Shown here: positions 56,368 through 59,181 of the stretch, piece by piece
How the letters are laid out: each line of letters begins with the position of its first letter
How positions within the stretch are numbered: the stretch's first letter is position 1
IMG/VR virus record: IMGVR_UViG_3300033405_000004
Coordinates: 64,001-128,000 of that record
DNA from: a virus
DNA: 64,000 nt
Direction: 5' to 3' (one strand)
Notes under the pieces: generated by a model
Told to the model about the DNA's origin: nothing
What the model saw: the letters and a program-made list of their open reading frames with translations, nothing else
Databases searched by the model: none
Translations under genes and position numbers: made by a program

Positions 56368-56541
56368 ATGAAAGTAAAAGTTGGCAGCAAAATCTACGAC
56401 GGCAACGACCAGCCAGTGATGGTCATTCTGTCCAAGAAGGATAAGTTCAACATCGCGCACATGCCTCCGCGCGTTAGGTGTTACTGTAGCTTTCCTGACG
56501 GTATGGACGCCAAGAAAGTCCTGCAATGGATGAAGAGATGA
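56368..56541 (+). CDS. small hypothetical protein
   Basis: 57 aa, MKVKVGSKIYDG.DQPVMVIL...; coupled to the next gene. Confidence 0.6.
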   Translation: MKVKVGSKIYDGNDQPVMVILSKKDKFNIAHMPPRVRCYCSFPDGMDAKKVLQWMKR

Positions 56542-56921
56542 AGGTCACCCTGATCCGCGCCGACGTCACCAGCCTGAACGGGCGATGCTACCCGAAGGGC
56601 GTGCTGGAGCAGGCGCTCCTGAAGATGCCGCGCGAGATGTTCGGCACCGTCGGGTTCCTCGAATATGGCGAGCCGGTCACCCTGGAGAACGCCGCCTTCA
56701 GGGCCAGCGGCTTCGCCACCAACGAGCGGGGCGACGTCGTCGCGGAGATCGCCGTCCTGGACACCGCCCCCGGGCGCAAGCTCTGCGAGCTGATCGAGAA
56801 CAAGATCGACGTCGTGTTCCGCGCCGCCGGCACCGGCAGGCTGGAGGGGGCGGAGGTCAGGGAGTTCGAGATCACCGGCATCGCCATGCTGCCGAAGGAG
56901 AGGGACGCTTTCAACTTGTAA
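56538..56921 (+). CDS. gp21/U9 prohead-protease-like protein lacking catalytic residues
   Basis: NGR.YP..VL and LDT..GR.L..L fold motifs, but GTVGFL and RAAG.G in place of the His and Ser motifs. Confidence 0.65.
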   Translation: MKVTLIRADVTSLNGRCYPKGVLEQALLKMPREMFGTVGFLEYGEPVTLENAAFRASGFATNERGDVVAEIAVLDTAPGRKLCELIENKIDVVFRAAGTGRLEGAEVREFEITGIAMLPKERDAFNL

Positions 56922-56962
56922 GTCTAAAACTTTTCAGCCACAGTGTGGCTCGTTCTTTCCAA

Positions 56963-57554
56963 CCCCGGGGGTGTACCGGATTCGATCCGGTCGTGACCGG
57001 GGCCCCTGCACGCCGGGCGATCCGACCTCACCCCGTAAAACTGCGGCCGGAACCATAGACGGCAACGACTATGACCAAAAGGTGATCAAGGTGGACTTCT
57101 CGAAGTCCGCCGAGGTCGCCCTGGCGGCCGCCTAAGCGGCCGCCCGCCGAGCCCCGACGCCTGCTGAGGGCCACGGCGACGCAGCAGGCGAAAACGGCGG
57201 CGGACTCAGCGTCGGAGAAGGGTGACTGGGTCCAAACCGACTTCGGCCGGGGTTGCCCAACCCACTCGTTGACAAACGGCGGCCGGCCCTTTGGTTGGGG
57301 ACCGCTCCGCACTGGCTTGTCAGCGCAAGCCGAAAGGCGCGGACAAAACCGCGGGCACTTGCGAGGTCGCCAACCCATGCCAATGGGGACTCCTGGTAGG
57401 GCGACGCGTCCGGGGCTCACACCCCGGGTTTTGCCGACAAGGCCGGGTCACGCGATGTCACGCAATGAAATGGAAGCGCCGGAAGTGCACGGGGGCGCGC
57501 CCCCGAACGATGCACGCAAGCCGGTTCTAACCCGGATCGAGGATAGCCCTGGGG
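56963..57554 (+). ncRNA. ssrA: tmRNA-like RNA (tag GNDYDQKVIKVDFSKSAEVALAAA) with non-canonical 3' end
   Basis: 5' GGGGGTG...GATTCGA start, PK1-like region, ATAGAC|GGC resume context, ALAAA* tag with stop in a hairpin loop, long-range helix-2 pairing; no T-arm or CCA found. Confidence 0.8.
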
Positions 57555-57586
57555 GCCGGCGACCCCTGCGCTGACGCCATTTTCCC

Positions 57587-57676
57587 ATGATGATTGCCTG
57601 CTCCATCCTGGCGGCCTGGCTCCTCTGGAAACTGCTCCATCGGTGGAGCGAGGACGCTCCCCGCGACTATGAGTGA
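57587..57676 (+). CDS. putative small membrane peptide
   Basis: 29 aa, MMIACSILAAWLLWKLLHRWSEDAPRDYE. Confidence 0.35.
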   Translation: MMIACSILAAWLLWKLLHRWSEDAPRDYE

Positions 57677-57686
57677 TAGTTAGGGC

Positions 57687-57974
57687 ATGCCGAACGCGCG
57701 CCAGATTCTCGAAAGCCTCGTCGAAGACGAGGCCGTCCGCATCGGCCCGCCGCCGCGGGTGAAGTCCCTTACCGACCGGGAGTGGCTGGCCTGGAAGGAC
57801 AGGCTCACCCCGCAGCAGTGGGAGGCCCTGGGGAGGGTGCGGGAGCGCTGGGACTGGGTGGCCGACCCGGGGTTCCTGCCGCTGGAGAAGTGCCTGATGG
57901 TCCACGTCGGCTCGAACGAGACCGGGGCGGAGATGTGGCTCGGCATCGAGACCGATGGCCACACCCACTCCTGA
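57687..57974 (+). CDS. hypothetical protein with ARQILESLVE tag
   Basis: TAGTTAG-N3-ATG upstream; C-terminal MWLGIETDG.THS. Confidence 0.75.
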   Translation: MPNARQILESLVEDEAVRIGPPPRVKSLTDREWLAWKDRLTPQQWEALGRVRERWDWVADPGFLPLEKCLMVHVGSNETGAEMWLGIETDGHTHS

Positions 57975-59181
57975 CCTGCACGTCCCGCCCTACGACGGGT
58001 TCTGGCTCCGCCCCGACGGGCGGCTGTACCTCGTCGGGATCAAGGAGGAGCACGACGCGTGGGCGGAGGACTACTTGAGGCTTCCCAGCAACGTCTACGG
58101 CGACGCCAGGGAAAAGCTCCTGGCCATGGGCTGGTGGCGCGGCGTCAGGGAGACCGACGCCCGCGAGGAGGTCATCGGCGTCAACGGCGAGAGGCCGCTG
58201 ACCAGCCGCCAGCGCGCGACCCTGGAGGAGGTGGGGATGGAGAACGGCATCCCCGTGGTGGCCTACTGGCCCGACCCGGAGGAGACGATCTATTCGCCGC
58301 CGGAGATGGCGGTGGCCGAGGCCCGGCTCCCGTACGTGCCCCGCGGCTTCTGGCTCACCCAGGCGGGGAAGGTGTACGACGTGGGCCTGGACGACCACGA
58401 CCTCTGGGCGGCCGACTTCCTCGACTTCAAGCGGCCCGCGGACAGCGACGACCCCACTTATGGTGACAGCTCGCAGATCCTTCTGCGGCGCGGCTGGTGG
58501 CGGGCCGTGCTCATCGACGAGCAGTACATCGCCAACGGCGACATCGCGCTCACCCGCGCCCAGCGCGGGGTCCTGGAGGAGATGGGCCTGGAGGCCGGCG
58601 TCCCGGTGCTGGCCTACCTGGGGGCGCCGAGCTGGGAGGGCGGCGGGGAGCCGGAGGTGGTCTTCTCGCCGCCGACGGAAGTCGCGGAGGCCTTCGGGCG
58701 CGGCAAGCCGCTCGAACCGGCCACGGTGGAAAGGCTCAGGGCGAGGCTGACGCGGGGCATGGAGGTCTGGCGGGGGTTCAGGCGGCCGGGCCAGAAGCCG
58801 GCCGACCCCGGCGACCTCGGCCAGGGCGCCTACCACAGCACCTCGCGCTCGCGGGCGTCCGGCTACGGCGAGCCCCGGCGGGTCGTCCTGCGTCTGCGCA
58901 ACCCCCTCATCCTCTCGGCCGGCGAGGCCTACGACCAGGTCGCCGACCGGTTCGGCACGATCAGCGGGGTGGCCGGCGAGCCGCAGCACGGCGCCGGAGA
59001 CATGGGGGCGCGGGCCCTGCGCTCGGCCGAGGCGACGGCGGCCCTCGTGCGGGCGGGGTACGACGGGCTGGTGGCCGTCAACCCGCACCGTTACGGCGGC
59101 CTGGGCGGCGAGATCGAAATCGTCCAGTTCCCGGCCGTCTCCGAGGAGGCCTGCCGGCTCGTCGACGCGTTGCTGGCGTGA
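57955..59181 (+). CDS. polyvalent protein: two tandem repeated domains plus ADP-ribosyltransferase-like (ART-PolyVal-type) domain
   Basis: GFWL..G..Y.V...HD.WA.D.L...GWWR twice; then VWRG, G.GAYHST, L.NPL, GYDG and EIVQF. Confidence 0.65.
   Translation: MATPTPDLHVPPYDGFWLRPDGRLYLVGIKEEHDAWAEDYLRLPSNVYGDAREKLLAMGWWRGVRETDAREEVIGVNGERPLTSRQRATLEEVGMENGIPVVAYWPDPEETIYSPPEMAVAEARLPYVPRGFWLTQAGKVYDVGLDDHDLWAADFLDFKRPADSDDPTYGDSSQILLRRGWWRAVLIDEQYIANGDIALTRAQRGVLEEMGLEAGVPVLAYLGAPSWEGGGEPEVVFSPPTEVAEAFGRGKPLEPATVERLRARLTRGMEVWRGFRRPGQKPADPGDLGQGAYHSTSRSRASGYGEPRRVVLRLRNPLILSAGEAYDQVADRFGTISGVAGEPQHGAGDMGARALRSAEATAALVRAGYDGLVAVNPHRYGGLGGEIEIVQFPAVSEEACRLVDALLA

Follow-up and report, generated by a model that had tools for sequence, protein, structure and literature searches.

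A phage tmRNA homologue with an intact messenger half and a tRNA-like 3′ end that appears to have degenerated in place

The acceptor and T-arm part of transfer-messenger RNA (tmRNA) is read by RNase P, by alanyl-tRNA synthetase (AlaRS, via the G3:U70 pair), by EF-Tu and by SmpB. Position 3:70 is the site of alanine identity, SmpB binding normally requires the T-loop elbow, and phages usually do not carry an SmpB gene. Partial and rearranged forms of tmRNA genes have been described. Pseudogenes that are truncated or lack one gene end are known and are routinely rejected by curators, whose rules demand an intact tRNA-like domain (TLD) and intact CCA positions (Hudson, Lau and Williams 2014, PMC4131195; 2025 database paper, PMC11915505). 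A TLD-only RNA of phage DS6A inhibits tmRNA (PMC4131195; PMC11915505), and none of the tmRNA introns reported in the 2025 database paper exceeds 700 bp (PMC11915505). The locus described here differs from each of these forms in the state of its 3′ end.

The window, by which we mean the whole stretch of 64,000 nucleotides that was analysed, comprises bases 64001–128000 of a 157,322-base IMG/VR virus record that is linear, has a GC content of 67.7% and is estimated to be 69% complete. The source of the RNA is a large high-GC phage, and the genes near it include a family A DNA polymerase, glycosyltransferases, a tail-fibre-like protein and a short paralogue of the T4 gp21 prohead protease. Between the protease paralogue and the next gene (57687–57974) lie 765 non-coding bases, in which a codon-signature test detected no open reading frame with the GC pattern of the phage (about 0.63/0.45/0.95 at codon positions 1/2/3). 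This is no assembly artefact, because an independent assembly from another sample (L003) reproduces the locus without a single difference over 800 nt; the neighbouring gene is present on 12 contigs, the longest of which measures 204.7 kb.

Several further features of this phage and its relatives were observed alongside. Short gp21/Peptidase_S77 paralogues of about 110–150 aa form a widespread family in large phages (homologues P0002–P0151), and in one distant relative (L133:79-944) such a paralogue and a gp23 capsid gene lie beside a peptidyl-tRNA hydrolase gene (PTH2), a tRNA-Ile with a long variable region and an ochre-suppressor-like tRNA with anticodon TTA. The phage itself carries an amber-suppressor tRNA about 6 kb before the window (G000:C1:57898-57974; L002:1479-1555), with anticodon CTA and labelled 'Pyl' by ARAGORN. 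TAG stops still close many of its high-GC3 open reading frames, and antisense frames confounded a quick test for recoding. A tRNA-Thr (CGT) call at G000:C1:29760-29851 has 92 nt, which is unusually long for a tRNA. A repeated 13–14-nt motif of the TAGTTAGGGCATG type occurs directly at start codons, at window positions 57677–57690 and at other sites in the genome, and is probably the translation-initiation context of the phage.

Judged from its sequence and predicted pairings, the RNA encoded in the non-coding block is a real tmRNA homologue, with a probable gene span of 56967–57579, or 613 nt (Table 1). A sequence check places GGGGGTG at 56967–56973 and GGATTCGA at 56978–56985. As in tmRNA, an acceptor 5′ strand that starts with GGG is followed by a D-loop analogue (GGAUUCGA), and model positions 1–25 of a hidden Markov model (HMM) of the phage tmRNA family described below match exactly this stretch by nhmmer, with near-identity to the family consensus. 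The 5′ and 3′ regions are joined over a long range by a helix of the P2 type, consisting of the nested pairings 57003–57011/57485–57494, 56996–57000/57521–57525 and 56982–56990/57532–57540 (9, 5 and 9 bp), which are evident from the sequence and in the minimum-energy fold; GTGCAC on the 3′ side of this helix is the counterpart of the family's GCATGT motif. Enclosed by it, a local alignment to Rfam RF00023 (57021–57178, E 1.6e-5) traces PK1, then a resume codon and a tag frame with its stop in a hairpin. An AACCA-type motif ahead of the resume codon is common to the window RNA and three other phage tmRNAs (L126, L237 and L217).

The tag has a GC content of 0.62/0.29/0.88 at the three codon positions, which resembles the genes of the phage, whereas the values for the 30 in-frame codons ahead of it are 0.63/0.73/0.60. 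This coding-type pattern, unlike that of the codons before it, indicates that the tag was translated for much of the history of the lineage. The first-pass annotation of this DNA had described a tmRNA 5′ end, PK1 and a tag of 24 codons whose stop is located in a hairpin loop closed by 9 bp, and the sequence check found all of these coordinates to be correct. Its description of the tag frame as intact likewise holds, with 24 codons, a TAA and a coding-type GC3, as does its description of the RNA as oversized, given the 613 nt here against 294–449 nt in the family.

Table 1. Features of the tmRNA-like locus and its surroundings, in window coordinates
Feature	Positions	Strand	Basis and remarks
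Upstream gene, 131-aa short paralogue of T4 gp21/Peptidase_S77 prohead protease	56526–56921	+	phrog_207, E 5.7e-6; homologue family partly with PF03420; synteny anchor
GTTCTTT box, 8 nt upstream of the RNA 5′ end	56952–56958	+	Shared with about 90 of 100 phage tmRNA loci in IMG/VR and with L126
5′ half of tRNA-like domain	56967–56985	+	Acceptor 5′ strand 56967–56973, two nt, D-loop analogue ending in GGATTCGA
P2 (long closing helix), 5′ strand	56982–57011	+	Nested pairings with 57485–57540
PK1 and A-rich stretch ahead of resume codon	57021–57060	+	Rfam RF00023 alignment, model positions 56–95
Tag frame, 24 codons and TAA	57061–57135	+	Rfam alignment; codons 57061–57132, TAA 57133–57135
Stop-codon hairpin, 9 bp, 4-nt loop holding the stop	57123–57144	+	Sequence, Rfam alignment, folds
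Expanded middle region replacing PK2–PK4	57145–57484	+	Exceeds that of relatives by about 200 nt; Rfam model aligned to its start only
P2, 3′ strand	57485–57544	+	Inserted GC hairpin 57490–57504; ends in GGAT, equivalent of family GGAC
Six inserted nt pairing with the 5′ acceptor strand and lengthening the closing stem	57545–57550	+	Minimum-energy fold; relatives without equivalent
T-arm-sized hairpin, perfect 5 bp and 7-nt loop, without UUC..A consensus	57551–57567	+	Sequence; stem like the L126 and L236 T-stems
Degenerate acceptor 3′ strand, G, CCA (57577–57579), T run; likely 3′ end of the gene	57568–57583	+	Sequence; family ends in ACCA and T run
Spacer, non-coding, before next gene (57687–57974)	57584–57686	.	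Small ORF 57589–57678 with GC3 0.47, non-coding for this phage; fold of 57536–57690 z +0.47

The gene is collinear with its relatives up to GGAT (57541–57544), beyond which the family has 28 nt that form the T-arm, the acceptor strand and ACCA, as against 35 nt here. The minimum-energy fold joins 56963–56977 to 57541–57554, and both this extension of the stem and the three P2-type pairings were recovered where the first-pass annotation had placed them. The hairpin that follows has no UUC in its loop and does not show the T-loop consensus (UUC.A), whereas TTC is present in all members of the family. Eight bases come after the hairpin, and among them the strand at 57569–57575 pairs with the 5′ end at five of seven positions, with mismatches at 2:71 and 3:70, and is followed by a G as discriminator; a 7-bp acceptor stem with G3:U70 and a discriminator A is not formed, although the CCA itself is present. 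A hairpin of such shape with a CCA at such spacing occurs at about 0.5% of positions in the phage genome, a figure that was obtained post hoc. Because the vestigial hairpin, the CCA and the T run lie at roughly the spacing seen in the family, the 3′ end appears to have been altered in place and not moved, and we read it as a former T-arm, acceptor and CCA that were remodelled in situ, degenerate rather than absent and not the result of a deletion. The earlier claim that the RNA has no tRNA-like 3′ end is thus right as regards a canonical T-arm, acceptor and ACCA, and goes too far as regards 57551–57583, where the degenerate hairpin, strand, CCA and T run are found.

Automated detectors see this gene poorly or not at all. 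ARAGORN, although it also detects permuted forms, reported no tmRNA at the locus, and a 'pseudogene' call that appeared when the tool was relaxed to 70% was discarded as junk that used the wrong 5′ end. The RF00023 match is limited to PK1, the tag and the stop hairpin (model positions 56–185) and scores 19.5 bits, below the gathering score of 47. Both tools had been suggested in the first-pass annotation as a means of confirming the missing 3′ domain, and both agree with it, ARAGORN being silent and the Rfam match ending at 57178. That annotation had also found no T-arm/CCA fragment in a permuted position upstream or in a downstream one, and the same outcome now extends to the entire 157-kb record, in which a regular-expression search, a structural scan and a 3′-end HMM identified no separate acceptor piece, their sole scorer being the T-arm of the suppressor tRNA. 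A canonical T-loop with a complementary acceptor strand was not found anywhere in the record, and the upstream region, where a permuted gene would hold its acceptor piece, consists of a protein gene and a short hairpin. The group I intron model RF00028 had no match in 56600–58000 or in the whole record, and a 3′ exon was likewise not found; in the positive control, an intron-bearing phage tmRNA (L217), the model scored 41.5 bits and gave clean exon junctions. No SmpB gene is present in the record. A second site with GTTCTTT and a G run (G000 53420) proved to be an ordinary promoter region, and a scan for 15-mer palindromes returned mostly chance matches.

The expanded middle region shows little sign of additional structure. 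The RNA as a whole is more stable than shuffled sequences (z −3.6), but the fold of the extra middle part (57136–57480) is no better than that of shuffles (z −0.25) and the 3′ spacer equals them (z +0.47), pseudoknots being outside the fold model in both cases. These values lend no support to the suggestion, made in the first-pass annotation, of a new large structured RNA. A perfect 8-bp complementarity exists between an internal hairpin loop (57322–57329) and the 3′ tail just before the CCA (57568–57575); as a real contact, this pairing was judged to be due to chance.

The ordinary form of this gene is known from a large family of phage tmRNAs, which was collected from IMG/VR by a pattern that combines the upstream GTTCTTT box with the 5′ motif. 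About 90 of the 100 loci obtained are real tmRNAs of 294–449 nt according to ARAGORN and the family HMM. Their 5′ ends are almost identical to that of the window RNA, and their 3′ ends are canonical, in that GGAC precedes a T-arm whose loop contains TTC, and a complementary strand with G3:U70 leads on to ACCA and a T run; on these features the window RNA is placed as a divergent member of this family. The box lies 2–14 nt upstream of the mature 5′ end in about 90 phage tmRNA genes, and may be a promoter or a processing signal. The first-pass annotation had regarded the GTTCT motif as a phage trait, a view that does not survive, since the GTTCTTT box precedes some bacterial tmRNA genes as well as many of phages; the bacterial cases belong to Kofleriaceae, Opitutales, Thermoanaerobaculia and Balneolaceae, and the tags of the Opitutales resemble that of the window RNA.

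The family also contains unusual members. A 777-nt group I intron interrupts a phage tmRNA at position 7 of the T-loop (L217:609-1385, the same place as L238, IMG/VR record G002), and this intron holds an apparent reverse-strand ORF. Permuted, two-piece members also occur (L187 and L219). Six TLD-only mini genes of about 85 nt (L145, L157, L171, L191, L226 and L229, all in IMG/VR) stand behind a GTTCTTT box and have an acceptor stem with G3:U70, the GGATTCGA motif and a T-arm but lack a tag, and they are similar to the inhibitory RNA that mycobacteriophage DS6A encodes.

The nearest syntenic relative is a 1-kb Logan contig (L126), on which a homologue of the protease paralogue (P0004) is followed about 100 nt on by an ordinary tmRNA that scores 60.1 bits, measures about 350 nt, has a normal T-arm and is cut only by the end of the contig. 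This tmRNA is canonical and is preceded by a GTTCTTT box, with the same CGTTCTTT motif, and its tag shares with that of the window RNA an N-D start, a V-I-x-V-D-F-S core and an Ala-rich end. The synteny, the box and the similar tag indicate that the window locus descends from a canonical phage tmRNA. The two loci are the only places in which a tmRNA adjoins the protease paralogue: the corresponding site of the closest protein relative (L123) is devoid of a tmRNA, ten further homologues of the paralogue have none adjoining, and no gene for the paralogue was found beside the tmRNAs of the IMG/VR family. Close relatives of the window RNA were not recovered by blastn against phage records, by the exact 5′ 19-mer in IMG/VR or with the neighbouring proteins as single queries, and cluster members of the neighbouring genes showed no variants. 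A joint pattern of tag and 5′ motif gave only two matches in IMG/VR and metagenomes, both due to chance.

Our preferred explanation, in which we place about half of our confidence, is that the window RNA is a disabled tmRNA, that is, a relic. According to this model, a phage ssrA (tmRNA) gene would have arisen from a canonical ancestor and kept its messenger half intact while the 3′ half of its tRNA-like domain degenerated in place, losing the T-loop consensus and leaving an acceptor 3′ strand mismatched to the 5′ strand and without G3:U70, and the six inserted bases would lock that 5′ strand in the long closing stem. As encoded, the RNA would not be recognized normally by RNase P, alanyl-tRNA synthetase, EF-Tu or SmpB; because the features that these four proteins read are absent, trans-translation has most likely been lost, and the relic gene is perhaps still transcribed. 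While this loss of charging and of function is something we infer from the sequence, homology to tmRNA is demonstrated by the local RF00023 match, the HMM match of the 5′ 25 nt and the P2 pairings, together with the synteny with L126, all of which uphold the earlier designation of the RNA as a tmRNA derivative. Its intact parts are likewise demonstrated and its canonical end is missing, with ARAGORN silent, the Rfam score below threshold, no T-loop or acceptor in 157 kb and no group I intron, and the vestigial hairpin, CCA and T run retain the family spacing. Canonical ancestry is supported by L126 and by the roughly 90 canonical family members in IMG/VR, the absence of a tmRNA from the corresponding site in L123 fits a lineage that is losing the gene, and truncated, one-ended tmRNA pseudogenes provide a precedent (PMC4131195; PMC11915505). 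The first-pass annotation would have given up its own reading, that of a repurposed derivative, had a canonical or spliced end or random decay among homologues come to light; no such end was found, but the one relative with synteny has a canonical tmRNA, an indication of loss or decay in the lineage of this phage. Against a relic stands the fact that all but the last 35 nt or so looks selected, including the 5′ strand, the D-loop analogue, PK1, the resume context and the codon signature of the tag. Moreover, the T-stem keeps all of its 5 bp next to a scrambled loop and a scrambled neighbouring strand, and under neutral decay such a stem should not survive; a compact phage genome pays heavily for 765 nt of non-coding sequence; the record covers only 69% of the genome; and no close relative was found by which to date the change.

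This same asymmetry, in which the 5′ half, PK1, the resume context, the tag and the T-stem are kept and the T-loop and acceptor strand are replaced, would also suit a derivative that is no longer chargeable but still functions, the RNA being kept for what the messenger half or the 5′ tRNA-like half, or the two together, still do, an alternative that we consider doubtful. Such an RNA might serve as a decoy against the host tmRNA–SmpB system or the ribosome, or as a regulatory RNA, and its remodelled 3′ hairpin would only stabilize or terminate the transcript. The retention of a long RNA in a dense genome favours this alternative, as do the TLD-only tmRNA inhibitor of DS6A, which is the opposite partial form (PMC4131195; PMC11915505), and the six TLD-only genes behind the GTTCTTT box. 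One conceivable, though on our assessment unlikely, version is a 'tag-half' RNA that dispenses with alanylation and yet still serves the phage, interfering with or redirecting ribosome rescue in the host; with its 5′ tRNA-like strand, PK1 and translatable tag kept, it could, with similarly low probability, be seen as a mirror image of the DS6A inhibitor, and perhaps as one example of a broader class of phage tmRNAs devoid of a tRNA part. However, no relative was found with the same 3′ end, so the new parts offer neither covariation nor another sign of selection, neither the extra middle part nor the 3′ spacer folds better than shuffled sequence, and SmpB, for which the record has no gene, normally needs the T-loop elbow. 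The decoy role, which had already been put forward in the first-pass annotation, gained no positive support from the analysis. The same applies to an acceptor supplied in trans, another of its proposals, for which the 157-kb record holds no matching piece. A split or otherwise completed tmRNA, in which the T-loop, acceptor and CCA come from the unsequenced 31% of the genome or by trans-splicing, or in which a second, intact tmRNA gene makes this copy redundant, is in our view quite improbable, even though it draws some support from a record that is 69% complete, from a 204.7-kb contig of this phage and from the two-piece and intron forms in the same family. The vestigial hairpin and CCA already fill the proper place, and neither a matching piece in 157 kb nor a group I intron was detected. 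Because P2 is closed in cis, a piece acting in trans would be held by the 7-bp acceptor stem alone, and the acceptor 5′ strand is already paired with the 6-nt insert. Finally, the low Rfam score of 19.5 bits and the silence of ARAGORN might suggest that the locus is an artefact of assembly or that GC-rich non-coding DNA resembles tmRNA here by chance, an explanation to which we attach a minimal probability: the locus is identical in an independent assembly from another sample, the neighbouring gene occurs on 12 contigs, the synteny, upstream box and tag are common to L126, and the 5′ end matches the family HMM. For practical purposes, the independent assembly and L126 refute such an origin.

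If the gene is a disabled relic, it documents the loss of tmRNA by a phage and constitutes an annotation trap, in which an intact tag frame is attached to a tRNA end that no longer works. Continued use by the phage would make it the first RNA of the tmRNA type with demonstrated activity in the absence of a chargeable tRNA-like domain, and would be relevant to the question of why tmRNA genes are so common in large phages. In either case, the analysis has provided a context, namely a large canonical family of phage tmRNAs that have a common box and include intron-bearing, permuted and TLD-only members.

Compared with known systems, the window RNA agrees with standard tmRNA, as represented by RF00023, the GTTCTTT family and L126, in its 5′ acceptor strand, the GGATTCGA motif, P2, PK1 and the resume context, and also in a long tag with an Ala-rich tail, a stop within a hairpin, the upstream box and a 3′ CCA with a T run. 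It departs from this standard in its length of 613 nt instead of 294–449 nt, in a T-loop without UUC, in an acceptor 3′ strand that is non-complementary and has no G3:U70, in the 6-nt insert before the hairpin and in falling below the thresholds of Rfam and ARAGORN. Its lesion is at the T-arm, where introns sit, and intron and permuted forms occur among its relatives; unlike these forms, however, it is accompanied by no detectable intron, 3′ exon or upstream acceptor piece. It resembles one-ended tmRNA pseudogenes in lacking a usable end and would fail the rules of curators, but whereas those pseudogenes are cut by island integration, here the end is remodelled in place with the hairpin and CCA kept, and the gene sits in a large phage of lytic type. 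The TLD-only tmRNA of DS6A is likewise a phage-borne partial tmRNA and sets a precedent for a fragment with an inhibitory role. The two would be opposites in construction, the DS6A RNA having a tRNA-like domain and no tag, and the window RNA having a tag and what is predicted to be no working tRNA-like domain.
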